64,000 nt of DNA from a bacterium (GTDB taxonomy: Bacteria; Elusimicrobiota; Elusimicrobia; Elusimicrobiales; UBA9959): NCBI GenBank assembly GCA_021811185.1, contig JAJZPL010000016.1, forward strand, positions 1 to 64,000, given 5' to 3'. Below are positions 1-58,940 of the stretch, piece after piece. Positions within the stretch are counted from its first letter, which is position 1, and every line of letters starts with the position of its first letter. Under the pieces are notes generated by a model that ran no database searches, had not been told where the DNA came from, and saw only the letters and a list, made by a program, of their open reading frames with translations. Made by a program: the position numbers and the translations under genes.

Positions 1-43
1 CTCTAAGTGAATCTTTAACAAGCAGGCTTGTTCCTGCCGGAGG

Positions 44-187
44 GGCGACCGGGGGACCGGGTTAGCAAAACCCTCGTGAGCCTGCCGCTTGCGTAAGCGC
101 GGCAGGCGAATGTGGAGTGAGGCCACGGTGTGGCCGAACGCGTTTTGCGTTCCGGTCCCCCGGCTGCCCCGACTTCACCTCTCGCGT
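44..187 (+). repeat. Structured repeat copy A (~110-nt hairpin 51-161 plus CCGACTTC tail), immediately upstream of the nrdG-like gene
   Basis: Closing stem gggggaccgg(51-60)/ccggtccccc(152-161); inner gcaaaac/gttttgc pairing; core motifs gcttgcgtaagcg and ggccacggtgtggcc; near-identical to the reverse complement of 58195-58338. Confidence 0.75.
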
Positions 188-230
188 TCTTATGCAGGAA
201 CATTCCTGCTTAAAAAAAATTTCTTCTTAT

Positions 231-4287: not shown

Positions 4288-5841
4288 ATGAAAAAAATAT
4301 TCCTGACACTGGCTCTTCTTGCCGTTTTTTCGGGGCTTCACGCGCGGGCCCTGACCGTCGCCGTCTACCATACCTCGGACGCGCACGGCTGGTACTCCGC
4401 GCGGCCGGCGCGGTGGGATAACGAAAATCCCGCGCGCAGCATCGGCGGTTTCGCGGCGCTCTCGGCGCTGCTTAAAAAGGAGACCACCCCGTATGTCCTG
4501 CTGGATTCCGGCGACATGTCCCAGGGCACTCCGGAGGGCATTCTCACCAAGGGCATGGCCAGCATAGCGCTGATGAACCAGCTCGGCTATTCCGCCGCGG
4601 TCCCGGGCAACCACGATTTCGATTACGGCGAAGCCAATCTTAAGGTGCTGGTCTCCAGCGCGGCTTTCCCTTTCCTGGGCGCCAACGTGTATTCCAAGGC
4701 CGCCGGCGGCCGCGTCGCTTACCTTAAGCCTTACGCGATCCTCGAAAAAGGCGGCCGGAAGATAGCCGTGCTGGGCCTGCTCGGCCGGCATACGGCCACC
4801 TCCACCCTGCCGTCCAACGTGAAGCACCTGGATTTCCGCGAGGAGGCCGCCGAGACCGCCAAATGGCTCCCGGAGATAAAGCGGCAGAACCCCGACGCGG
4901 TCATCGTGCTCACGCACCTCGGCCTCAGCGAGGACCTGAGCCTTAAGCGGGTGGATATCTCCACCTGGACCTTCGACCCGCCGCCCTTCGGCACGCTGAT
5001 GATAGCGCGGGCGGCGCCCGGCGTAGACCTGGTGCTGGGCGGGCATAACCACGCCGCGCTGCTGCGGGGCTACCACGACCCGGTCTCCGGCGCCTGGCTG
5101 GGCGAAAGCGGCTACGGGCTCTCTTACGTTACCAGGGCGGAGCTGAATTTTAACGACGCTACCGGCAAGCTCGAGGACATTAAGGTGAACGTTCTCCCGC
5201 TCTGGACGGACCAGACCGGCCAGGACCCGCTGGTGCTTAAGACCATAGCCGGTTTTAACGCCCAGGTGGACCGCGAGATGGGCCGGGTGATAGGCCGCGC
5301 GGCCTCCGGCCTGGGCGCCGCTCCCGACGGCCTCGATTCGCCCATAGGCGGCTGGCTGTGCGACATAAGCCGCAAGGCGACGGGCGCGGATATGGCTTTT
5401 CATAATACCAAGGCTTTAAGGGCTGAGATAAAGAAAGGCCCGGTGCGGCTGCGGGATATCTTCCAGGCGATGCCGTTCGACAATACCCTCATCACCATGA
5501 GGCTGAACGGCGCGCAGCTCAAGCGCCTGATGGCCGACAACCTGCGCGGCGGCTGGAGCGCCGTCCAGGTCTCCGGCCTGCGGGTGAAGTTCAGGCCCGG
5601 GCCAGGCGGCAAACCCTCCGAAATACGTCTCGAGCGCAACGGGCGCGAGATCAAGCCCGGGGAAGAATTCCTGGTGGCCACCAACAACTACCTGGCTTTC
5701 GGCGGCAACGGCGGCGGTGTTTTCTCCGAAGGCAGGGATATTAAAGACACCATGCTCCCCGTGCGGGACGTGATGATAAAGGCTTTCTCCAAAGGCCCGG
5801 TAAAGGCGCCGGAACACGGCAGGATAAGAAGGCTCAAATAA
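4288..5841 (+). CDS. Secreted 5'-nucleotidase / calcineurin-like metallophosphoesterase (UshA-like)
   Basis: Signal peptide; DAHG...GDxxQG...GNHDFDYG metallophosphatase motifs; C-terminal 5'-nucleotidase substrate domain. Confidence 0.8.
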   Translation: MKKIFLTLALLAVFSGLHARALTVAVYHTSDAHGWYSARPARWDNENPARSIGGFAALSALLKKETTPYVLLDSGDMSQGTPEGILTKGMASIALMNQLGYSAAVPGNHDFDYGEANLKVLVSSAAFPFLGANVYSKAAGGRVAYLKPYAILEKGGRKIAVLGLLGRHTATSTLPSNVKHLDFREEAAETAKWLPEIKRQNPDAVIVLTHLGLSEDLSLKRVDISTWTFDPPPFGTLMIARAAPGVDLVLGGHNHAALLRGYHDPVSGAWLGESGYGLSYVTRAELNFNDATGKLEDIKVNVLPLWTDQTGQDPLVLKTIAGFNAQVDREMGRVIGRAASGLGAAPDGLDSPIGGWLCDISRKATGADMAFHNTKALRAEIKKGPVRLRDIFQAMPFDNTLITMRLNGAQLKRLMADNLRGGWSAVQVSGLRVKFRPGPGGKPSEIRLERNGREIKPGEEFLVATNNYLAFGGNGGGVFSEGRDIKDTMLPVRDVMIKAFSKGPVKAPEHGRIRRLK

Positions 5842-8055: not shown

Positions 8056-10074
8056 CTACCAGACTCGGCAGGGCTTGACGGCCGTCATGGCCTGGCCTTT
8101 GCGGCAGCCGAAAGCTTCGGAGAATTCCGGCATGTTCACCGCTACCCCGTTCACCCGGGTGATGGCCGGGGGATGCGGGTCGCTCAGCACCAGCATGCGC
8201 AGGGCGGCGTCGGTGTAGTTGGTGCACCAGACCTGGGCCCAGCCCAGGAAAACCCGCTGCTGCTGCGTGAAGCCGTCCACCGGCTTTGCCGGCTTGATCA
8301 CGGACTTCTCGTCCAGCGCCATCAGCGCCAGCCGCAGGCCGCCGTTGTCGGCGGTGTTCTCGCCCAGCGTCAGCTTGCCGTTCACCGGCAGGTTCCCGTT
8401 CACGGTGAAGCTGGAGTACTGGTCCACGAAGCAATTGCTGCGGGCCTCGTACTCTTTGGCGTCGGCCGCGGTCCACCAGTCGGACATGTTGCCCTTGGCG
8501 TCGAACTTCCTTCCCTGGTCGTCGAAGCCGTGGGTGAGCTCGTGGCCTATCACGCCGCCGATGCCGCCGTAGTTCATGGCCGGGTCCAGGGCCGCGTTAA
8601 AGAAGGGCGGCTGCAGGATGCCGGCGGGGAAGTTGATGCTGTTCATCATCGGGTCGTAGTAGGCGTTCACGGTGGGCGCGCTCATGTCCCAGTCCCCGCG
8701 GTCCACCGGCTTGCCGATCTTCGCCAGTTGCCGGCGCGTTTCGAAGTTCTTGGCGCGGAGGAAGTTGCCCAGCCAGTCGCCGCGCTTCACTTCCAGCCCG
8801 GCGTAGTCGCGCCACTTGTCGGGGTAGCCCATCTTGTTCTCCACTGCGGCCAGCTTCCGCTGCGCCAGCGCGCGCGTTTTGGCGTCCATCCAGTCCCGGC
8901 CCTCGATATCCCTGGAGAGGGCCTTTTCGATATTGCCCACCATCTCCATGGCGGCCGCCTTGGCCTTGGGGCTGAAAGCCTTCTCCACGAAGCGGCGGCC
9001 CAGCAGGTCGCCCAGGCCGTAGTCTGCGTAGTCCGCGCAGCGCTTCCAGCGCGGGCGCAGTTCCCGCGCGCCGCCCAGGGTCTTGCCGTAGAAGTCGAAG
9101 TCCTCGTCCACGAAGGCCCTCGAGAGCAGGTCCGCCCTGGAATTGAGGAGTTTCCAGCTGAGGTAGGTTTTCCAGTCTGCCAGCGGCGCGGTGCGGATCA
9201 GCGCGCTCGCTTTCTTCAGGAAGTCCGGCGAAGCCGCGTTGATGGCCGTAATTTCGGGCGCGCCGGCGGCCTTGAAGAAGCCAGTCCAGTCCATATCCGG
9301 CGCCAGTTCTTCGAGGCCTTTCACGTCTATCTTGTGGTAGGTCTTTTCCGGGTCGCGGCGCTCCACCTTGTCCATGGAGGCCCGGGCCAGTTCAGTCTCG
9401 AAATTCATGGCCGCGGCGGCCGCCGCGGAGGAAGCGGCCTGGTCGTAGCCGGCCAGCGCGAAGAGCTTCTTCATGTGTTCTAGATACTTGGCGCGCATTT
9501 CCGCGGAAGCGGCGTCGGTCCTAAGGTAATAGTCGCGGTCGGGCAGGCCCAGGCCGCCCTGGTCTATTTCGGCTATCACGCTGCTGGCGTCCTTGTAATC
9601 CTGCCCGGAGCCGAAGCGGAAGAAGGAGGAGACGCCGCGCGCGTAAAGGCGGGCTATTTCCGCGGAAACGTCCCGCGCGTCCTTCATGGCCGCTATATCG
9701 GCCAGGTCCTGCCTTAGCGGTTCCGCGCCCAGCGCGTCCACCGCTTTTTCGTCCATGCAGGAGGCGTAAAAATCCCCCAGCTTCCTGTCCTCTTCCGAAC
9801 GCTTGCCGGACGGGGCGGCGGCCTGGTCCAGGATGCCGCGCAGGATGGCGCGGTTATTCTCCGCGAGCTCATTGAAGCGGCCCCAGTCGGACTGGTCCGC
9901 GGGAATAGGGTTATTGGCCAGCCAGCCGCCGCAGGCGAACTGGTAAAAGTTCCCGCAGGGGTCGGCCTTTCGGTCGACCGAGGCGGCAACGGCGCTGGCT
10001 GCGGGCGGTTCCGCGGCCGCGGGGGCGGCAGGCAAAAGCAACAGGAGAAGCAGGGGGAGGTTTCGCATAGGCAA
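8056..10074 (-). CDS. pepO: M13 family zinc endopeptidase (PepO / neprilysin-like), secreted
   Basis: Signal peptide with Leu run; HELTHGFDDQG (HExxH) zinc motif; downstream ENxADxGG; 672 aa. Confidence 0.85.
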   Translation of the reverse strand: MPMRNLPLLLLLLLPAAPAAAEPPAASAVAASVDRKADPCGNFYQFACGGWLANNPIPADQSDWGRFNELAENNRAILRGILDQAAAPSGKRSEEDRKLGDFYASCMDEKAVDALGAEPLRQDLADIAAMKDARDVSAEIARLYARGVSSFFRFGSGQDYKDASSVIAEIDQGGLGLPDRDYYLRTDAASAEMRAKYLEHMKKLFALAGYDQAASSAAAAAAMNFETELARASMDKVERRDPEKTYHKIDVKGLEELAPDMDWTGFFKAAGAPEITAINAASPDFLKKASALIRTAPLADWKTYLSWKLLNSRADLLSRAFVDEDFDFYGKTLGGARELRPRWKRCADYADYGLGDLLGRRFVEKAFSPKAKAAAMEMVGNIEKALSRDIEGRDWMDAKTRALAQRKLAAVENKMGYPDKWRDYAGLEVKRGDWLGNFLRAKNFETRRQLAKIGKPVDRGDWDMSAPTVNAYYDPMMNSINFPAGILQPPFFNAALDPAMNYGGIGGVIGHELTHGFDDQGRKFDAKGNMSDWWTAADAKEYEARSNCFVDQYSSFTVNGNLPVNGKLTLGENTADNGGLRLALMALDEKSVIKPAKPVDGFTQQQRVFLGWAQVWCTNYTDAALRMLVLSDPHPPAITRVNGVAVNMPEFSEAFGCRKGQAMTAVKPCRVW

Positions 10075-12782: not shown

Positions 12783-13832
12783 ATGAAGACGATGGAAATA
12801 TCCTGCGCGGCAGTTTTTGCTCTTGTTTTGTCCGTGCCGGTCCTGGCGCAGGACAACCTGGAAACTCCGCCGGTGAACAGCGCCGAAGTCCGGTCCGTTA
12901 ACAGCTTCTTCGAACGCGGCCCGGCTAAGGAATACGGGCTCAAGACGGTTTACGTGGGCGGCGAAGTCGAAACCCCCGGGCCGGTGACGCTGGCGGACCT
13001 GCCGCTGCGCGGCCTGGCGGTGAAAGAGCTGGCCTTGGAGAAAGGCGCGCCGGTATTCAAGGGCGCTTATTACTTCACCGGCTATTCCCTTTACGACATC
13101 CTGAACTTTAAGCCGGTAAAAAAGGTCGGCTCCGGCTTCTCCCCCGAAACGGACCTGTACGTGGTGGTGGAGAACGACAAGGGCGAGAAAGCCGTTTTCA
13201 GCTGGGGCGAGATCTATTACACCCGGGATAATTTCGACGACCTTATTCCCAAAGACGCGCGCCCGATAAATCCCGCCAGGAGCGGGCAGGCCTGGCCCCT
13301 GCCGGCAGTTCCCCGGCTTATCTGCGGCGGGGACCTGTACAACGACCGGTACATAGAGAATCCCGCAAAGATCATGGTAAAGTCCGTTCCCGGCGTGTTT
13401 CCGGGAGAGAAGCACGCGGCGGCTTTCTCGCCCGAACTTGAAATAGTTTACGGCGGCACTACCACCGTGGTAGCGGACCCGGCCGGTTTTTTGCGCGGGC
13501 GCGGCAATCCCACAGCCTCATACGGACACGGCATGGGCTATAAAGGCCTGCAGACCACCGAAGGTTTCCTGCTGAAGGACATGCTGTTGAAGGCCGGCGT
13601 GAAGCAGCGGGGGTCCGGTTCTTCGCTGGTGGTGATCTCGGCAAAGGACGGCTACCGCTCTTCTTTCAGCCTGGCGGAGATCCTGAACCGCAACGACAGC
13701 GAGGACTTCCTGGTGGTGGACAAGGGCATGGACGACGCGGACGGGGGGCGGTTCGCCCTTTTCGTGCCTTCGGATTTCTTCGTGGACCGCAACATCCGCT
13801 CTATAGCGAAAGTGGAGATAATAAAGATCTGA
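12783..13832 (+). CDS. Secreted hypothetical protein (signal peptide, no recognisable domain)
   Basis: GGAGGGA RBS; N-terminal signal peptide AVFALVLSVPVLAQD; unique terminator downstream. Confidence 0.5.
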   Translation: MKTMEISCAAVFALVLSVPVLAQDNLETPPVNSAEVRSVNSFFERGPAKEYGLKTVYVGGEVETPGPVTLADLPLRGLAVKELALEKGAPVFKGAYYFTGYSLYDILNFKPVKKVGSGFSPETDLYVVVENDKGEKAVFSWGEIYYTRDNFDDLIPKDARPINPARSGQAWPLPAVPRLICGGDLYNDRYIENPAKIMVKSVPGVFPGEKHAAAFSPELEIVYGGTTTVVADPAGFLRGRGNPTASYGHGMGYKGLQTTEGFLLKDMLLKAGVKQRGSGSSLVVISAKDGYRSSFSLAEILNRNDSEDFLVVDKGMDDADGGRFALFVPSDFFVDRNIRSIAKVEIIKI

Positions 13833-13849: not shown

Positions 13850-13882
13850 GGATAAAACCCGGGTTGAGGCCCGGGTTTTTTT
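13850..13882 (+). terminator. Rho-independent terminator
   Basis: aaaacccgggttgaggcccggg + T9. Confidence 0.75.
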
Positions 13883-13972
13883 ATCCTGACAGTTTGTAAA
13901 TTCGGTTTTTTTGTTTGTTATAATCCGGGTAAGGCGGTATGGGACCGCGCAGCTAAATACGGGGGAGGGACT

Positions 13973-15985: not shown

Positions 15986-17644
15986 TTAGCGGGAATAAAC
16001 GAAAGCCCGGGTCAGTTCTTCACCGGCGGTTTCCGGGGAAGTTTCTCCGGCTTTCCAGATAACCGCGCGGTCCAGCGCCCAGCGGGCGCGGACCTTGTTA
16101 AGAAGATAGTCGCGGACGACCAGCACCAGCGGAACATTGCCGTCCTTCGCCAGCCGGTCCAGGGCAGGCGCCCAGCCGCCGCCTTCCAGTTCCAGGAAAC
16201 CGACTTCATCTATAAAAACCGCGTCCGCGGCGGCTAGGGCCTCCGGGGAAAGTGCGGCCTTCCCCGAGGCTATCCCGGCATCATAAAAACCGAATTCTCC
16301 GGCGCGTACGCCGTCGCCTGCCGCACCGCGGCGGCAAAGGGGGACGCGCGCGCCCGAGCATAGGTCCACCAGGTCGAAGCCGGCGCGCTGACCGTCCGCC
16401 CAGAGTCCGGGCGCCAGGATCCCTCCCGGTTTTTTCCCCGCCCGCCGCAGGCCTTCCGCCAACTCCGATACGAATTCGCTTTTCCCCGAGCCGTGGCCGC
16501 CGGTTATTATAAATACCCGCGGTCCGCCCCGCTCGTCCAGCCAGAAAGGAGCGGAAGCGATCACTTTGGAGAGAGAGGCTAGCGGGCGGCGGGCCATCTC
16601 GCCGCCGCCGGGCAGCGCGGAGATGATTTCAGGCAGCGCGCTGAAAGCGTATTCGAGGGTCTCGAAGAAGACGCCGCCGCCCAGCCGTTCGAGGCCGGAA
16701 CGGATCCGCGGGTTGGTAAGTTCCGAGCCGATAGCGGAAAAACCGAACGTAAGTACGAAAGCCCGCACGGCCATGTAGAACCCGGCCCCGGCGCTGCCCA
16801 GGATGAGCCCGGCGGCAAGGGATACGCCCAGGACCCCGGCCCAGATCCCGGCCCGCTTAAGCAGGGCCCCTGCCCGGGGGTAGTACAGCGCGCAGGCCCC
16901 CGCATACGCCGCGGCCGCGGCGCAAAGCGCCGGCAGCGGCAGCCTGCGCCCGGCCGCCATGACCGTTATTACCAGCAGGAAGTGCAGGATAAGCGCCGGG
17001 ATCGAGCGCCCGGCCGCGGCTTTTGCGGACTTTACCCGTATATTCCCGGGCCTGGCGCGCGGCGCGGAGGGCGCCGGGCCGGAAGTTCTTCCGCCTTTAA
17101 ACCCGGCGGCGGCGGCCAGGGCGCCGGCGAGAAAATACAGCCCGAGCAGGAGCAGCAGCGGGGGCCACGCGCCTTCGGGGACAAGGACGGTCTTCGCATG
17201 CAGCCAGCTGAGGCCGCGCAGGTAGATATTCACCGTGTCGGGGCCGTAATAAAGCAGCATAGTGCCTGTTTTCTGGACGATAGCCCAGCTCATGGCCAGG
17301 CCGCCGGCAAGGCCATAGCCGGCGGGATTGCCGCCCAGCAGGCGCACGCCGGCCTCGGCCAGCAGGCCCTCCATGGAGATGGCCAGCATCGGGCCGAAGA
17401 TGACCGCGCTGGGGGAGATGGATTTCATGGCCGCGCAGACGAGGCCGGTCCGCCAGAGCAGGCCGGGCTCCGGCCAGAGCTGGTGCCCCGCCACCAGGAC
17501 GGCTATGCCGATGGCGGTAAGGAATTCGCCGGAGAACGGGACCCGGGCGTTATGCAGGAAGGTGCCCAGCACTATTTCGGAGGCGGCCCAGATGCTGCCG
17601 AGCACCGCCGCCTTGCGCCATAACAGGAGTTTGTGACTTGCCAT
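15986..17644 (-). CDS. Fusion protein: N-terminal polytopic membrane domain plus C-terminal THEP1/DUF2478-like P-loop NTPase
   Basis: About 10 predicted TM segments then Walker A GGHGSGKS, GFDLVDL, and Walker B-like ADAVFIDEVGFLE; start set at MASHKLL (17644) with a GGAGA RBS; the track ORF extends to 17833. Confidence 0.6.
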   Translation of the reverse strand: MASHKLLLWRKAAVLGSIWAASEIVLGTFLHNARVPFSGEFLTAIGIAVLVAGHQLWPEPGLLWRTGLVCAAMKSISPSAVIFGPMLAISMEGLLAEAGVRLLGGNPAGYGLAGGLAMSWAIVQKTGTMLLYYGPDTVNIYLRGLSWLHAKTVLVPEGAWPPLLLLLGLYFLAGALAAAAGFKGGRTSGPAPSAPRARPGNIRVKSAKAAAGRSIPALILHFLLVITVMAAGRRLPLPALCAAAAAYAGACALYYPRAGALLKRAGIWAGVLGVSLAAGLILGSAGAGFYMAVRAFVLTFGFSAIGSELTNPRIRSGLERLGGGVFFETLEYAFSALPEIISALPGGGEMARRPLASLSKVIASAPFWLDERGGPRVFIITGGHGSGKSEFVSELAEGLRRAGKKPGGILAPGLWADGQRAGFDLVDLCSGARVPLCRRGAAGDGVRAGEFGFYDAGIASGKAALSPEALAAADAVFIDEVGFLELEGGGWAPALDRLAKDGNVPLVLVVRDYLLNKVRARWALDRAVIWKAGETSPETAGEELTRAFVYSR

Positions 17645-17657
17645 AGGTTCCGTGTCT

Positions 17658-17683
17658 CCGTTATATTTTGTAAAATATAACGG
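17658..17683. promoter_or_regulatory. Perfect 12-2-12 palindrome CCGTTATATTTT-GT-AAAATATAACGG resembling a ModE operator (CGnTATAT...ATATAnCG)
   Basis: Lies in the 39-bp gap between the divergent membrane-NTPase and modE-like start codons; overlaps the RBS of the minus-strand gene. Confidence 0.65.
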
Positions 17684-18031
17684 ATGCATATCAAGATAAA
17701 GATAGGTTTGCGCGATCCTAAGGACCGGCCGTTCATGGGGATAGGCACGGCGTGGCTGCTGCGCGGCGTAGAGAAGGCCGGTTCGCTCAGCGAGGCCGCC
17801 AAAGAAATGGAGATGTCCTACTCCAAGGCGCATAAGCTGGTGAAGACGCTGGATGCCGCGCTGGGGACGAAGGTGCTGGCCTCCGAGCGGGGCGGCAGCG
17901 ACCGCGGCGGCTCGGCGCTTACGCCGGAAGGCCTCCGCTTTCTGAAGCGCTACGAGGCGCTGGACGCTTCTATAAGAAAACAGTCCGAAAAACTCTTTAA
18001 AAAAACCTTCCCGGCCGGGCGGCTCAATTGA
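17684..18031 (+). CDS. modE: ModE N-terminal-domain-like molybdate/tungstate-responsive transcriptional regulator (no Mop/TOBE domain)
   Basis: Alignable to the E. coli ModE N-terminal winged helix (GSLSEAAKEMEMSYSKA vs GSISQGAKDAGISYKSA); 115 aa. Confidence 0.65.
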   Translation: MHIKIKIGLRDPKDRPFMGIGTAWLLRGVEKAGSLSEAAKEMEMSYSKAHKLVKTLDAALGTKVLASERGGSDRGGSALTPEGLRFLKRYEALDASIRKQSEKLFKKTFPAGRLN

Positions 18032-19038
18032 GCAAGCCGATAAAGATCTCTTTCGCGCTCCGCGAATGGACCGGCGCCGCCGGCGACCTCGGCATGAGCG
18101 TGCCGGTGCTGCTGGCGCTGTCCGCCGCCGGGGCGCTGGACCTGGGGCGCGCGCTGTTCCTGTTCGGCGCGGTCTATGTCTGCGCGGGGCTGTATTTCCG
18201 CGTGCCGCTGCCGGTGCAGCCGCTCAAAGCCGCCACTGCCGTGGCCATAGCCAGGGGCCTGGGGGGCGAGGCGCTCAGGGCCTGTTCGCTCTGGATGGCG
18301 GGGCTTTTCATACTTTTTTCCGTTACAGGGCTTTCGAATAAAATAAACCGCATCTTCACCCGCACCATAGTGCGCGGCATCCAGTGCGGGGTGGGCTTGC
18401 TGCTGTTAGGCGCCGCCTATAAAATACTTATGGCCGGCCCGCGCGCGGCCTGGGCGCCGTTCACCCCGGGCCAGGGCCTGCCGGGCCTGGCGGAGATGTG
18501 GACCGCGCTGTGGGTGCTGGTTATCCCGCAGCTGCCCATGACGCTGGGCAATTCCATAGCCGCCACCTGCGAGGTCAGTAATAATTACTTCGGCGAGGGC
18601 TCGGCCCGCGTGGAGCCGGGCAGGATCTCGCTCTCCATCGGCCTTTCCAACCTGGCGGCGGGGCTTTTCGGCGGGCTGCCCGTGTGCCACGGCTCCGGCG
18701 GGGTGACCGCCCATCATAAAATGGGGGCCCGCACCGCCGGCGCCACTATAATCATCGGTACGGCCTTTATTCTGCTGGCCTTGGCGCTGGGCTCGGCCGG
18801 CGCTGCGGCCTTGCTCAGGGCCATTCCTAACTGGCTGCTGGCCGCGCTGCTGGCTTATACGGGTGTGCTGCACGCCAAACTCGTGTTGGACCCGCAGGCC
18901 AGCCTGCCGGTGGCCGTGATCATGGGCTTTATAGGGCTCGCCACGCAGAACCTTACCTACGCCCTGGCTTTCGGGCTGGCCGCCGAGGCGGTCCGCAAGG
19001 CTGCCGCGAATTTGCGGCTGAAAACCGCGGTTTTTTAG
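18028..19038 (+). CDS. MOT1/SulP-related putative molybdate/tungstate permease (no STAS domain)
   Basis: Signature EWTGAAGDLGMSVPVLLAL matches the sulfate-transporter/MOT1 motif (ELSGAxGDLGTxIPI); polytopic; TTG start overlapping the modE-like stop; alternative ATG at 18094. Confidence 0.6.
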   Translation: MSKPIKISFALREWTGAAGDLGMSVPVLLALSAAGALDLGRALFLFGAVYVCAGLYFRVPLPVQPLKAATAVAIARGLGGEALRACSLWMAGLFILFSVTGLSNKINRIFTRTIVRGIQCGVGLLLLGAAYKILMAGPRAAWAPFTPGQGLPGLAEMWTALWVLVIPQLPMTLGNSIAATCEVSNNYFGEGSARVEPGRISLSIGLSNLAAGLFGGLPVCHGSGGVTAHHKMGARTAGATIIIGTAFILLALALGSAGAAALLRAIPNWLLAALLAYTGVLHAKLVLDPQASLPVAVIMGFIGLATQNLTYALAFGLAAEAVRKAAANLRLKTAVF

Positions 19039-19087: not shown

Positions 19088-19912
19088 GTGCATATAATGA
19101 AAAACAATAAATTTATCCTAGCCGCTATCGCCGCGGCTTTCATGTTCGGCTGCCAGGCTAAGCCCGAAGTGGTCCGGCTGGCCACTACCACCAGCGTGCA
19201 GGACACCGGCCTGCTGGACGTGGTCGCCGAAGCTTTCCAGAAGGACGGCAAATATAAACTTCAGGCCATCGCCGTGGGTTCCGGCCAGGCCATGCAGCTC
19301 GGGAAGACCGGCGAAGCCGACATCCTGTGGGTGCACAGCCCCGACGACGAAAAACAATTCGTCGAAGAAGGCTTCGGCATCGACCGCACCACCTTCCTGC
19401 ATAACGACTTCGTGCTCCTCGGCCCCGCCGCGGACCCCGCCAAAGTGAAGGGCGTTAAAAAAGCCGCCGACGCTTTCAAAAAGATAGCCGCCGCCAAGGC
19501 GTTGTTCGTCTCCCGCGGCGACAAGTCCGGCACGCACAAGAAAGAGCTCAAGATCTGGGACGCCGCCAAGGTGAAACCCGCCGGCGACAAGTACATAGAG
19601 GCCGGGCAGGGCATGGCCGCCACGCTGACGCTGGCCAACGAGAAGAACGCCTATACGCTGGCGGACCGTTCCACGTACCTCTCCATGAAGGACAAGCTCG
19701 GCCTGGTGATAGTATGCGAGGGCGACGAAGCGCTGCTCAACCGCTACAGCCTGATCCTGGTGAACCCCGCCAAATTCCCCAAGGTCAACGCCGCCGGGGC
19801 CAGGGCCTTCTTCGATTTCGTGCTGTCCGCGCCGGCTAAAGAACTTATAGAGAGGTTCGGCCGGGACAAGTACGGCAAGCAGCTGTTCTTCTACGATTAC
19901 GCGGTAAAATAA
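19088..19912 (+). CDS. tupA: Tungstate ABC transporter substrate-binding lipoprotein (TupA family)
   Basis: Lipoprotein signal (FMFGC); RLATTTSVQDTGLLDVV anion-binding motif typical of TupA/WtpA. Confidence 0.8.
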   Translation: MHIMKNNKFILAAIAAAFMFGCQAKPEVVRLATTTSVQDTGLLDVVAEAFQKDGKYKLQAIAVGSGQAMQLGKTGEADILWVHSPDDEKQFVEEGFGIDRTTFLHNDFVLLGPAADPAKVKGVKKAADAFKKIAAAKALFVSRGDKSGTHKKELKIWDAAKVKPAGDKYIEAGQGMAATLTLANEKNAYTLADRSTYLSMKDKLGLVIVCEGDEALLNRYSLILVNPAKFPKVNAAGARAFFDFVLSAPAKELIERFGRDKYGKQLFFYDYAVK

Positions 19913-19930: not shown

Positions 19931-20632
19931 ATGGGCTTCATAGCGGAGGGCTTCAGGCAGGCCCTGCACCTTATCTTCTCGGGCGACCCCGAGATCTTCG
20001 GCATAGTGCGCCTTTCGCTCACGGTCTCCGTGCTGGCTACCTGCGCGGCCGCCCTGCTTGGCGTGCCGCTGGGCAGCTGGGTAGCCGTAAAGAAATTCCC
20101 GCTCAAGAGGCTCGTCATAACGCTCGCCAATACCGGCATGGGCCTGCCGCCGGTGGTGGCCGGCCTGGTGGTAATGCTGTTCCTGTCCAGGAGCGGGCCG
20201 CTGGCCTTCCTCAACTGGCTCTACACGCCTTACGGTATGGTGCTCGTCCAGTTCCTAATAGCGCTTCCGATAATAACCGCGCTGACCATAGCCGCCATGC
20301 AGGGCGTGGACCCCAGGTTCTACCAGCAGGTGCTCACGCTGGGCGCCACCGACTGGCAGGCCATCCTGGTCAGCATTAAGGAGCAGCGCCTGGCCGTGCT
20401 GGCCGCGGTGATAGCCGGCTTCGGCCGGCTTACCGCCGAGGTGGGCGCGGTGATGATAGTGGGCGGCAATATCCGTTACGAGACCCGCGTGCTGACCACC
20501 GCCACCGTGCTGGAAACGCAGAAAGGAAATTTCGACCTGGCCATAGCGCTGGGGCTGGTGCTGCTGGCGCTGAGCCTGGCCGTGAACCTGGCCCTCACCT
20601 GGGCGCAGCAGCGCAAGGCGGCGGCGCGATGA
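19931..20632 (+). CDS. tupB: Tungstate ABC transporter permease
   Basis: ABC permease with EAA-like loop; follows tupA. Confidence 0.8.
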   Translation: MGFIAEGFRQALHLIFSGDPEIFGIVRLSLTVSVLATCAAALLGVPLGSWVAVKKFPLKRLVITLANTGMGLPPVVAGLVVMLFLSRSGPLAFLNWLYTPYGMVLVQFLIALPIITALTIAAMQGVDPRFYQQVLTLGATDWQAILVSIKEQRLAVLAAVIAGFGRLTAEVGAVMIVGGNIRYETRVLTTATVLETQKGNFDLAIALGLVLLALSLAVNLALTWAQQRKAAAR

Positions 20633-21687
20633 TAAAAGCCCGCGCCCTCACTTTGAAAGTTAACCCGGAGTTCACCCTCTCGGTGGATTCGCTCGACGTG
20701 GCGACGGGCGAGGTGTTCGCCGTGATCGGGCCCAACGGGGCGGGGAAGACCACCCTGCTGAACACTCTGGCGCTGCTCCGAGCCGCCGGCTCCGGTTCGC
20801 TGGAACTGCTGGGGCGGAACGCGCTGGCCCCCGAAAACAAAATGTTCCTGCGGCGCGCCATGTCCGTGGTCTTCTCGCAGCCTTACCTCGTAAACGATTC
20901 CGTTTTTGAGAACGTGGCGTTGCCGCTGAAGCTGCGCGGGCAAAAAGACGGCGCCGCGGTGGCGCAGGCGCTCGAGCTGTTCAAGATAACACATTTAAAG
21001 GACCGCAACGCGAAGACGCTTTCCCAGGGCGAAAGCCACCGCGCCGCGCTGGCCAGGGCTTTCGTGACCGGGCCGAAACTGCTGCTGCTGGACGAGCCCT
21101 TCGGCAGCCTCGACGCGCGTGTTAAAGAGACCATCGCCCGCGATCTGAAGCGCGCGCTCAAGGCGGCCGGCGCCGCCGTGCTGCTGGTGACGCAGGACCA
21201 GGGCGAGGCGCTTACGCTCTGCGACAAGCTGGCCGTGATGGCCGGCGGCAGGATAGCGCAGCAGGGCTTGCCGCAGGACGTCTTCGCGCGGCCGGCCACC
21301 AAAGAAGTGGCGGATTTCGTCGGGGTGGAAACCATCCTGCCCGGCAAGGTGAACGCCAAGGACGACAACCTCTGCTCCATCCAGGCCTGCGGCCTTACGC
21401 TGGAAGTCGTTTCCGACTGCGGGCCCGGCGACGAGGTTTTCGTCTGCGTGCGCCCCGAGGATGTGAGCGTGTCGAAAAGCCGCGAAACCGGCAGCATGCG
21501 CAACCATTTCAGTGCTAAAATAACCTCGGTGGAGCCTTGGCGGCTGGAGTACAAGGTAGGGCTGGACTGCGGTTTTACGCTGATGGCCGCGGTCACCAGG
21601 CAGTCGGTGGATTCGTTGGGTTTGAAGCCGGGGCTGGATGTATTCGCTTCGTTCAAGGCCACCGCCGCCCACCTGATAAAGAGGTAA
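20629..21687 (+). CDS. tupC: Tungstate/molybdate ABC transporter ATP-binding protein with C-terminal TOBE/Mop domain
   Basis: Walker A GPNGAGKTT; LSQGE signature; LLLDEP Walker B; ~120-aa C-terminal extension; overlaps tupB by 4 nt. Confidence 0.8.
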   Translation: MIKARALTLKVNPEFTLSVDSLDVATGEVFAVIGPNGAGKTTLLNTLALLRAAGSGSLELLGRNALAPENKMFLRRAMSVVFSQPYLVNDSVFENVALPLKLRGQKDGAAVAQALELFKITHLKDRNAKTLSQGESHRAALARAFVTGPKLLLLDEPFGSLDARVKETIARDLKRALKAAGAAVLLVTQDQGEALTLCDKLAVMAGGRIAQQGLPQDVFARPATKEVADFVGVETILPGKVNAKDDNLCSIQACGLTLEVVSDCGPGDEVFVCVRPEDVSVSKSRETGSMRNHFSAKITSVEPWRLEYKVGLDCGFTLMAAVTRQSVDSLGLKPGLDVFASFKATAAHLIKR

Positions 21688-21688
21688 T

Positions 21689-22870
21689 ATGCTGACTTTC
21701 GAAGAAGCCATTCAAACCGTTTTGAAACACGCGAAGCCTCTGCCTCCTGCGTACACGCCCACCGAGCAGGCTGTGGGGCGAGCTCTGCTGGAGGACGTGT
21801 GTTCCGGCATCGAGATGCCGCCCTTCGACAAGTCCGCCGTGGACGGCTACGCCGTGCGCGCCGGGGACCTGCGCGCCGGCTGCGCGCTCAAATGCCTGGG
21901 CGTGGTCCAAGCGGGTGGAAATTTCAAGGGTGCCCTGAAGCCGGGCTGCTGCGTCAAGATCATGACCGGCGCGCCGGTGCCCGCCGGCGCCGACGCCGTG
22001 GTGATGGTGGAGTACACTTCCGAGAAGGGCGGGCTGGTCAAATTCGAAGAAGGCATTGAAAAAGGCGCCAATATCGCCAAGCGCGGCGAAGATATAAAGA
22101 AAGGCCAGCTGCTCCTGAAGCGCGGCACCGTCATTTCCGTCTCCCATATAGCCGTACTGGCCGCGGCCGGCCGGGGCCGCGTTAAGACGGGGGCGCTCCC
22201 GAAGGTTTCGCTCGTCAATACCGGCGGGGAAATAGTGATGCCGGGGAAGAAACTCGGCAGGAACCAGATCTACAACAGCAACGGGCCGATGCTCTCCGCC
22301 ATGCTCAGGACCGACGGGATAAACGCCGCCCCGGTAATGGTGCGCGACGAGGCGAAGAAGACCCGCGCCGCGCTGGCCGCCGCGCTCAAAGCCGATATCG
22401 TCCTGATCTCGGGCGGCGTTTCGATGGGGGACTACGACCTGGTCCCCGGCGTACTGAAGAGCCTGGGCGTAAAAACCCTTTTTCACAAAGTGCGGGTGCG
22501 CCCAGGCAAGCCGATGCTGTTCGGCGTGAAGGGCCGGACGCTGGTCTTCGGCATCCCCGGCAACCCGCTGGCGAATTTCCTGGCCTACCTGGCCTACATC
22601 CGGCCCGCGATACGGAAACTGGGCGGCCGCGCCGACTACGCGCCGCAATTCCTGACCGGGACCTGCGCGGCCGAATTCAACCCGCGCACGCAGCGCCGCG
22701 CGCTGGTGCTTTCCAGAGTGACGGCGAAAACGGAGCATTCCCTCGTCCCGGTCTCCAACAGCGGTTCCGCCGATATTCTCGCCCTGGCAGAAGCCGAAGG
22801 CTTCACTATGGTGGACGAGGGCGGCTTGATAAAGAAAGGCGGAAAAGCTAAGTTCATCACATGGGCGTAG
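21689..22870 (+). CDS. moeA: Molybdopterin molybdenum/tungsten transferase
   Basis: MoeA N-terminal domain (PPFDKSAVDGYAV) and MoCF-biosynthesis domain (GGVSMGDYD). Confidence 0.85.
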   Translation: MLTFEEAIQTVLKHAKPLPPAYTPTEQAVGRALLEDVCSGIEMPPFDKSAVDGYAVRAGDLRAGCALKCLGVVQAGGNFKGALKPGCCVKIMTGAPVPAGADAVVMVEYTSEKGGLVKFEEGIEKGANIAKRGEDIKKGQLLLKRGTVISVSHIAVLAAAGRGRVKTGALPKVSLVNTGGEIVMPGKKLGRNQIYNSNGPMLSAMLRTDGINAAPVMVRDEAKKTRAALAAALKADIVLISGGVSMGDYDLVPGVLKSLGVKTLFHKVRVRPGKPMLFGVKGRTLVFGIPGNPLANFLAYLAYIRPAIRKLGGRADYAPQFLTGTCAAEFNPRTQRRALVLSRVTAKTEHSLVPVSNSGSADILALAEAEGFTMVDEGGLIKKGGKAKFITWA

Positions 22871-23817
22871 AATACCTGAGGATCTCGCTTACCGACAGGT
22901 GCAACCTGAATTGCGTCTACTGCACCCCGCTGGAGAAGCACGGCTATTTGCCGCACGAGGAGCTGCTCCGCCACGAGGAGATTGCCCGTGCCGCGGCCGC
23001 CTTTGTGCGCGGCGGGGTCACCAAGATCCGCCTCACCGGCGGTGAACCTCTTATAAGGAAGGACGTGGTAGAGTTAGTGCGCATGCTGAAAGCCATCCCC
23101 GGCCTTAAGGAACTCGCCCTCACCACCAACGGCATCCGCCTGGCCGAACTGGCCAAAGACCTGCGCGCCGCCGGCCTGGACCGGGTGAACATCAGCCTCG
23201 ACACTCTGAAAGAAAAAACTTTCAAGGAAATAACCGGCTTCCCCGGCCTGGATAAAGTGCTTGCCGGCATAGACGCGTCCCTTAAAGCCGGCTTCAGCCA
23301 GGTAAAACTGAACGTGGTCATCATGCGGAGTATAAACGACGCCGAGGTGGAAGACTTCGCGCGGCTGTCCATAGAGCGCCCGCTCGCCGTGCGCTTCATC
23401 GAGCTCTTTCCCGCCAACGACAGGGCCACCAAGCTTTTCAACGCCCACTTCCCCACCGCGGAGGCGAAGAAACGGATAGAAGCCGCCCTCGGCCCGCTCG
23501 AGCAGGTGCAGGCCGGGCACAGCGACGGCCCCGCGCGCGTGTACAAGCTGCGCGGCGCCAAAGGCCAAATAGGCTTCATCAGCGGCCGCTCCGATTATTT
23601 CTGCCTCTCCTGCAACCGCGTCCGCATGGACTGCACCGGCAAAGTCTACCCCTGCCTGTTCTCGCCCGCCACCCACAACCTGCGCGACCTCCTGCGCGGC
23701 GGCGCCGGCGACGCCGCCCTCGCCGACTACATCAAAAAAATATTTTTAGTAAAATCTAATTACAGGAAAGACTCCCCCACCGCCGGCCACATCGAAATGA
23801 GCAGCCTGGGGGGGTAG
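22861..23817 (+). CDS. moaA: GTP 3',8-cyclase (radical SAM, Moco biosynthesis)
   Basis: CNLNCVYC radical SAM motif; C-terminal MoaA twitch domain with CLSCNRVRMDCTGKVYPCLF. Confidence 0.85.
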   Translation: MGVEYLRISLTDRCNLNCVYCTPLEKHGYLPHEELLRHEEIARAAAAFVRGGVTKIRLTGGEPLIRKDVVELVRMLKAIPGLKELALTTNGIRLAELAKDLRAAGLDRVNISLDTLKEKTFKEITGFPGLDKVLAGIDASLKAGFSQVKLNVVIMRSINDAEVEDFARLSIERPLAVRFIELFPANDRATKLFNAHFPTAEAKKRIEAALGPLEQVQAGHSDGPARVYKLRGAKGQIGFISGRSDYFCLSCNRVRMDCTGKVYPCLFSPATHNLRDLLRGGAGDAALADYIKKIFLVKSNYRKDSPTAGHIEMSSLGG

Positions 23818-58194: not shown

Positions 58195-58338
58195 TTCGGA
58201 CCGCGAGAAGCGAAGTCTGGTGCGTCCAGGGGGACCGGAACGCAAAACGCGCTCGGCCACACCGTGGCCTCGCTCGACATTCGGCCCTCGCGCTATGCAA
58301 GCTCGGGCCTCACGACGGTTTTGCTAACCCGGTCCCCC
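58195..58338 (-). repeat. Structured repeat copy D (inverted relative to copy A; hairpin 58229-58338)
   Basis: Reverse complement nearly identical to copy A including the gggggaccgg/ccggtccccc closing stem; tail ccagacttcgcttctcgcg. Confidence 0.75.
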
Positions 58339-58389
58339 TGTCCACACCCTCCGCTTGTTAGGTTCCAAGTAAGAAAGTAATTTTTGAAA

Positions 58390-58689: not shown

Positions 58690-58795
58690 GGACAGCGGCC
58701 TGTTTCTGCCAGTTGTTTAACCGCCGGGGGACTGGCGGTTTTGTTTTGTAAGGGGACTAGGGATGGGCACTTGGGAATTAAGCGGAGGCGGCGGA

Positions 58796-58940
58796 CTGGG
58801 GTGCCGGGTTAGCAAAACCCTCACGGAGGCCGAGGCTTGCGTAAGCGACGAGGCCGAGTGAGGAGGGGCGGCTACGGTGTGGCCGACCCCGTGTTTTGCG
58901 TTCCGGCACCCCAGGCCGCCACCGACTTCGCTATCCTGCG
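58796..58940 (+). repeat. Structured repeat copy C (hairpin 58796-58914 plus CCGACTTC tail)
   Basis: Closing stem ctggggtgccgg/ccggcaccccag (compensatory relative to copies A and D); gttagcaaaaccc and gttttgcgttcc shared. Confidence 0.75.

Follow-up and report, generated by a model that had tools for sequence, protein, structure and literature searches.

We report that a palindrome between two divergent genes, in the 64-kb stretch of DNA analyzed here (the window), is a ModE-box operator, an assignment that is well supported by its sequence and context and that places it in an already known kind of switch. The box lies at the very start of modEN, a gene for a short ModE-like regulator that heads an operon for tungstate/molybdate uptake and cofactor synthesis. 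We consider it likely that a dimer of the ModEN protein binds the box and represses its own operon, with any effect on the divergent membrane-NTPase gene limited to this lineage.

Direct reading of the letters confirms the palindrome itself: CCGTTATATTTTGTAAAATATAACGG, which can also be written CCGTTATATTTTGTAAAATATAACG G, occupies 17658-17683 as a perfect 12-2-12 inverted repeat and fills the 39-bp gap between the start codons at 17644 (minus strand) and 17684 (plus strand), as an earlier note on this DNA had described. The perfect repeat in fact runs one base further on each side (13-2-13, 17657-17684, with ends TCCG...CGGA), so that it ends on the A of the modEN ATG. An overlap with the ribosome-binding site (RBS) of the NTPase gene, also proposed in that note, stands up weakly: a GGAG does lie at 17659-17656, 11 nt from that ATG, but it is not kept in the closest relative of the locus (L022). 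The palindrome is single in the window even when up to three mismatches are allowed (0 matches expected from 100 dinucleotide shuffles), and it forms an AT island in a sequence of 62.7% GC; the remaining perfect hairpins with 12-nt arms are GC-rich, terminator-like stems between A and T runs. Two further CGnTATAT half-sites occur in the window, at 9691 and 25585; because both lie within coding sequence and have no partner half-site, we regard them as chance matches and rejected them as operators.

The likeness of the half-sites to the ModE operator pattern is borne out at the level of single positions. The palindrome has the geometry CGnTATAT-N8-ATATAnCG, with outer CG dinucleotides that span 24 bp (17659-17682), in agreement with the E. 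coli ModE consensus ATCGNTATATA-N6-TATATANCGAT (ATCGnTATATA-N6-TATATAnCGAT, quoted by Rodionov et al.). Compared with the modA operator of E. coli K-12, read directly as CGTTATATTGTCGCCTACATAACG, the window box is equal at 15 of 16 specified positions, and both have an 8-bp spacer. A metagenome scan with the exact pattern CGTTATAT-N8-ATATAACG returned at least 80 loci in many different GC backgrounds. Among the 80 exact matches listed, at least 34 have a mod, tup, moe, moa or modE-like gene within 3 kb (counting homologs of modA/modB, tupA/tupB, moeA and moaA and ModE-like genes), a minimum figure in view of the many short contigs; the few percent that we would expect as background is our own estimate, made without a formal shuffled-pattern control. 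The ModE-like genes beside these listed matches mostly encode short proteins of 102-123 aa. This link of the pattern to Mo/W and modE-like genes points to recognition by the ModE family.

Table 1. Coordinates of the operator, its candidate promoter elements and the neighboring genes in the window
Feature	Position	Strand	Basis or remark
Perfect 13-2-13 inverted repeat	17657..17684	.	direct reading; matches E. coli consensus and modA operator; 11 loci
24-bp ModE box proper, CGTTATAT-TTTGTAAA-ATATAACG	17659-17682		direct reading
Left half-site CGTTATAT	17659..17666	.	same as left half of E. coli modA operator
Right half-site ATATAACG	17675..17682	.	direct reading, 11-locus comparison, modA operator
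-10-like hexamer TAAAAT, in box, 7 nt before ATG	17671..17676	+	candidate leaderless modEN promoter
Sigma-70-like match TTGCCA-18-TATATT (10/12), -10 in left arm	17638..17667	+	consensus scan; candidate, leader ~10 nt
Sigma-70-like match TTGATA-18-CAAAAT (9/12), toward NTPase fusion, -10 at box center	17665..17694	-	consensus match only
modEN, 115-aa regulator consisting of the ModE N-terminal (winged-helix) domain only	17684..18031	+	TIGR00637, PDB matches, E. coli ModE alignment
mot1, MOT1-type (MFS_MOT1) molybdate/tungstate transporter homolog	18028..19038	+	4-nt overlap with modEN
tupA-like tungstate-binding protein	19088..19912	+	NF041772, 3.9e-67, under equivalog cutoff
tupB permease	19931..20632	+	domain search
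tupC ATPase with C-terminal TOBE domain	20629..21687	+	window's only TOBE
moeA (metal insertion into molybdopterin)	21689..22870	+
moaA homolog	22861..23817	+	overlaps moeA
Membrane domain (no Pfam family) fused to THEP1/DUF2478 NTPase	15986..17644	-	divergent neighbor; possible lineage-specific second target

A genome scan for homologs of the regulator yielded 21 loci, the proteins being almost all ~115 aa long and encoded in Elusimicrobiota metagenome-assembled genomes (MAGs). We compared 11 loci: the ten closest of this set (ModEN 66-74% identity) together with L022 (ModEN 89%, fusion protein 71%). The 24-bp box is an island of conservation, with each column at least 80% identical in the 11 loci; its flanks are 30-50% identical, and the 40 nt upstream are at chance level. 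The half-site CGTTATAT is invariant save for a T-to-A change at position 3 in L008 and L009, which is mirrored in the right half (CGATATA...TATATCG). In all 11 loci the box abuts the modEN start codon, ending at the ATG or taking in the G of a GTG (six loci). The first codons of modEN vary synonymously or conservatively from locus to locus (ATC/ATA/ATT/TTA; AAG/AAA/AGG), which indicates that translation really starts there. The central TTTTGTAAAA is near-invariant in the 11 loci and variable in ModE boxes elsewhere, among the metagenomic matches; its invariance is thus not general to ModE boxes, and a constraint beyond ModE binding acts on it. Recognizable boxes also accompany farther homologs: L016 has one 4 nt before the ATG, and those of L017 and L021 are weaker.

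The box leads modEN-mot1-tupA-tupB-tupC-moeA-moaA in the window and modEN-(mot1)-tupB-tupC-moeA-(moaA) in each of the ten related loci. The upstream side differs between loci and holds tupA on the same strand as modEN (L003-L006), an intrinsic terminator whose end is only a few nucleotides from the box (L002, L010), a copy of a dispersed repeat that adjoins the box (L001, L003-L005), or the NTPase gene. A more distant Elusimicrobia MAG (L012) carries two modEN paralogs and two ModE boxes, at 106-129 and 4404-4427. One overlaps the start codon of the modEN paralog that leads a moeA-moaA-moaC-MOSC-mog operon for molybdenum cofactor (Moco) biosynthesis, and the other lies 26 nt before a porin-modA-modB operon with a normal Shine-Dalgarno sequence. 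Thus, the box sits in the control region of Mo/W transport and cofactor genes in the window, in the ten related loci and in L012. The porin in the last of these, of the phosphate type, is unusual within a mod operon (porin-modABC).

The gene of a tungsten-type aldehyde:ferredoxin oxidoreductase (aor) and a MoaD/ThiS gene lie upstream on the plus strand, so that the operon, predicted to be compact and autoregulated, combines tungstate uptake and cofactor synthesis beside a tungsten enzyme. The earlier note expected further copies of the palindrome upstream of tupA or aor. We found none, and tupA in the window lies within the operon. Relaxed motif scans (at least 11/14 or at least 13/16 positions) of the window and 26 loci revealed no additional site ahead of aor, tupA or the gene at 12783, and the one extra match in the window is at chance level (0.74 expected). 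Given the absence of a ModE box ahead of it, aor is apparently controlled apart from the tup operon. Ahead of aor we also noted a hairpin of terminator type, AAAACCCGGG...CCCGGGTTTT with a T run behind it (13854-13879), and a promoter-like sequence, TTGTTTGTTATAAT (13895-13925). Just upstream of aor, the gene at 12783-13832 (+) encodes a protein of 349 aa that carries a signal peptide and falls into no Pfam or NCBIfam family; homologs with 53-58% identity adjoin tupA in L002, L004 and L005, and this adjacency suggests that the protein may be an unrecognized tungstate-linked component of the periplasm or outer membrane.

The earlier note had predicted repression of the divergent membrane-NTPase gene, and here the comparison leads elsewhere. 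The fusion gene, whose 368-aa membrane domain has no Pfam match at E<=1, is widespread in Elusimicrobia; the divergent arrangement with modEN occurs only in the window, in its identical copy L147 and in L022. All ten related box loci are without the membrane-NTPase gene, and a scan of the fusion-homolog loci with readable DNA (L023-L026) found no ModE box. Since the fusion occurs elsewhere without the box and the box without the fusion, the operator belongs to the modEN-transporter-cofactor operon, its conserved partner, and the fusion gene is a recent neighbor. In three of five homolog contexts outside the lineage of the window, the fusion is the third gene of an operon of a nikR-like gene, a TonB-dependent-receptor gene and the fusion. 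The prediction of ModE control for this uncharacterized NTPase gene must be tempered accordingly, the usual partners of the gene being a NikR-like regulator and a TonB-dependent receptor and not ModE.

Coordinates of these operons are 2570-6686 in L023, 1409-5519 in L024 and 2543-6695 in L026, and their regulator has a NikR_C domain. Another homolog (L025) stands beside DUF134, Nitro_FeMo-Co and NifU genes, and such genes also follow the fusion in the P0060 context. The conserved operon with the NikR_C-domain regulator and the TonB-dependent receptor suggests that the fusion protein could be an uncharacterized inner-membrane component of an uptake system for nickel or another metal. An inverted repeat in L023, TTCATA-N16-TATGAA (2541-2568), ends 2 bp before the nikR-like ATG and is a candidate autoregulatory NikR box. 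The E. coli NikR operator is GTATGA-N16-TCATAC, and the spacing of the L023 repeat resembles it.

The sole domain match of ModEN is the LysR/ModE-type helix-turn-helix (HTH). It matches TIGR00637 (ModE_repress) at 1e-17 with 64 bits, under the curated cutoff of 98.5, and its best PDB match is 2IJL (1.7e-16), with E. coli ModE (1B9M) at 2.6e-7. The alignment with E. coli ModE covers residues 24-99 of the latter at 30% identity and stops where the Mop domains begin. Domain searches found no C-terminal di-Mop/TOBE molybdate-binding domain in its 115 aa, and a search of the window for a second TOBE/Mop gene returned none, the only TOBE domain being that of TupC. With an HTH alone, and with close homologs of 97-123 aa, ModEN is a ModE-N-only protein and not a full-length ModE. 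Short proteins of this kind dominate the nearest 150 representative clusters, and thus form a large class.

Since ModEN is without Mop or TOBE, dependence on Mo or W cannot be assumed, and repression that depends on molybdate or tungstate, as predicted in the earlier note, is not supported as stated. A W/Mo signal would need a partner or cofactor; otherwise the circuit would amount to plain negative feedback. A bolder reading, which we hold to be unlikely, is that the sensor-less ModEN, whose gene is in every case coupled in translation to that of a W/Mo transporter, receives the metal signal in trans, with the TupC TOBE domain, the MOT1-type transporter or the tungsten cofactor as candidate sources. 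It would act from an operator fused to the start codon of a leaderless mRNA and, in this lineage, would also have captured a membrane-NTPase gene whose normal place is a NikR/TonB-receptor operon for metal uptake. If true, this would be a form of ModE regulation that is coupled to the transporter and whose target has been rewired.

How the box could act is suggested by its position. No Shine-Dalgarno sequence lies between the box and the modEN start, and other genes of the window have clear ones; as the box abuts the start with no RBS in between, the mRNA probably has either no leader or one of at most 10 nt. The -10-like hexamer, inside the right half of the box, is kept as TAnnnT in 11 of 11 loci (TAAAAT, or TAAACT in L008 and L009) and lies 6 nt before the GTG starts, a placement that would correspond to the -10 geometry of a leaderless mRNA or one with a 1-nt leader. 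The near-invariance of TTTTGTAAAA fits a promoter element superimposed on the operator. GTG is used poorly on leaderless mRNAs by many bacteria, and the six loci that begin with GTG are a point against the leaderless reading. A scan for sigma-70-like sequences gave another candidate promoter (Table 1), whose predicted -35 element TTGCCA was set aside, as it is not kept in other loci. No conserved -35 element was found in those loci, so that promoter and transcription start are guesses. Either reading of the promoter nevertheless puts the -10 and the transcription start inside the box, and a bound dimer should therefore repress.

We infer the following course of events. A ModEN dimer would bind the two CGTTATAT half-sites through the outer CGs 24 bp apart, occlude the -10/start region of a leaderless or near-leaderless promoter and block RNA polymerase, thereby auto-repressing modEN-mot1-tupA-tupB-tupC-moeA-moaA. 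In this lineage only, the same dimer would also cover any promoter of the divergent NTPase gene, 39 bp away; any such promoter must overlap the box, which makes co-repression plausible as a prediction.

The -10-like hexamers inside the box, present on both strands, could also be taken to mean that the palindrome is a mere AT-rich core promoter, made of overlapping divergent -10s or of an UP-like element, in which the symmetry is incidental or is read by a regulator other than ModEN. A center more conserved than a ModE-box spacer is expected to be, and an AT island in a genome of 63% GC, would agree with this. Yet 10 of the 11 loci have no divergent gene and keep the full dyad all the same, together with GC-clamped CG ends that no promoter needs; the pattern associates with Mo/W and modE-like genes among the metagenomic matches listed; and the NikR-type repeat ahead of nikR, which is the gene that opens the fusion-homolog operons, is unrelated to the box. 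We consider this explanation quite improbable.

The palindrome might instead act as RNA, as a hairpin in a 5' leader that is transcribed, for example, by read-through from tupA or another upstream promoter and that masks the start region to control modEN translation or mRNA stability. A 12-pair stem is predicted (-16.8 kcal/mol, z = -5.5) and abuts a start codon that has no Shine-Dalgarno sequence, the symmetric change in L008 and L009 keeps the pairing, and tupA lies upstream on the same strand in L003-L006. However, it is the sequence that is conserved and not merely the pairing: inner-arm changes remain uncompensated (C-A and U-C mismatches) in L002, L010, L008/L009 and the second L012 site, and the outer half-sites that are conserved match those of DNA ModE boxes exactly. 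Moreover, the terminators that end a few nucleotides before the box in L002 and L010 leave little read-through to be expected, and the second L012 site stands upstream of a normal leader that contains a Shine-Dalgarno sequence. Neither the Moco/Wco riboswitch (RF01055) nor any other Rfam family was found at gathering score in the window and nine loci, and L004 3780-4040 gave no Rfam match at E<=5. Control by such a hairpin therefore seems very improbable to us.

The remaining alternative is that the palindrome is a generic repeat of the dispersed kind or marks one end of a mobile element. A ~150-nt dispersed repeat does exist in these genomes and adjoins the box in L001 and L003-L005, but that repeat is a separate element, absent from this site in the window. 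The palindrome has a single copy in the window and a single copy in each related locus, always at the same position beside modEN (the earlier note had named many unrelated copies as the sign of a generic repeat), which excludes this explanation.

The ~150-nt repeat is structured and has three copies in the window, at 30-190 (-), 58200-58360 (+) and 58780-58940 (-). Several related genomes have a copy between tupA and the ModE box (L003 3812-3975, L004 3811-3975 and L005 3772-3975, with a further copy at L001 20-160). Its structure includes a long-range hairpin, GGGACCGGAACGCAAAA...TTTTGCTAACCCGGTCCC, in which some changes are compensatory, and it has no Rfam family; it may be a REP/MITE-like element or a small-RNA family of Elusimicrobia. 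Between tupA and the box, L001 and L003-L005 share a conserved stretch that we considered as a riboswitch; this reading was rejected, as the stretch consists of this repeat, which has no relation to W/Mo genes.

The core suggestion of the earlier note, that a ModE-like regulator controls its own gene through an adjacent operator of the ModE type, is thus well supported by the geometry of the box, its conservation in 11 loci and its association with Mo/W genes. Among the closest known counterparts is the ModE-modABC system of E. coli. The 24-bp dyad is the same (CGnTATATA-N6-TATATAnCG), the two operators share the left half-site CGTTATAT, and the right half of the modA operator, ACATAACG, is one base apart from ATATAACG here. 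In both cases the box is near the start of a Mo/W transport operon, and the DNA-binding domains of the regulators are homologous. E. coli ModE, however, has 262 aa with two molybdate-binding Mop domains, whereas ModEN comes to an end once the DNA-binding domain is complete. The E. coli modE gene forms a divergent unit of its own, with the box ~23 nt ahead of the modA ATG; here the box is in direct contact with the start codon of the gene for the regulator itself, which opens a transport and cofactor operon, and there is no RBS.

Other regulators share one or the other of these features. The ModE-like Cj1507c of Campylobacter jejuni represses mod and tup in response to Mo/W with partners that are described as unknown (Taveirne et al., 2009, as summarised in PMC3417520). 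According to that summary, Cj1507c resembles ModEN in being without a recognizable metal-binding domain, but has an extra coiled-coil C-terminal domain and, unlike modEN, is not the first gene of the tup operon. In Methanosarcina acetivorans, the ModE motif RTTATGT-N8-RCATAAY was verified by EMSA upstream of Mo/W transporters (PMC12327845). It has the same 7-8-7 geometry as GTTATAT-N8-ATATAAC here, with ATGT/ACAT half-sites in place of ATAT; this archaeal ModE contains a single Mop domain, and the distance between its sites and the start codons is 29-633 bp (PMC12327845). A short architecture like that of ModEN is seen in PDB 2IJL, a 135-aa protein of Agrobacterium termed a 'molybdenum-binding transcriptional repressor'. 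Single-domain ModE proteins have also been noted in Desulfovibrio (PMC545781), where the predicted motif CGGTCACG-N14-CGTGACCG is quite different, while the Elusimicrobia keep the classical box of the E. coli type.

Taken against these systems, what is new is modest and involves no new mechanism: the phylum, a box that abuts the start codon, a regulator without a sensor domain and the lineage-specific adjacency of a gene that is usually linked to NikR. Our findings nonetheless extend the classical circuit of ModE and its box to the Elusimicrobia, a phylum with almost no experimental genetics, and offer a clean test case of how, and whether, ModE DNA-binding domains that stand alone, a very common type, sense metal without Mop.
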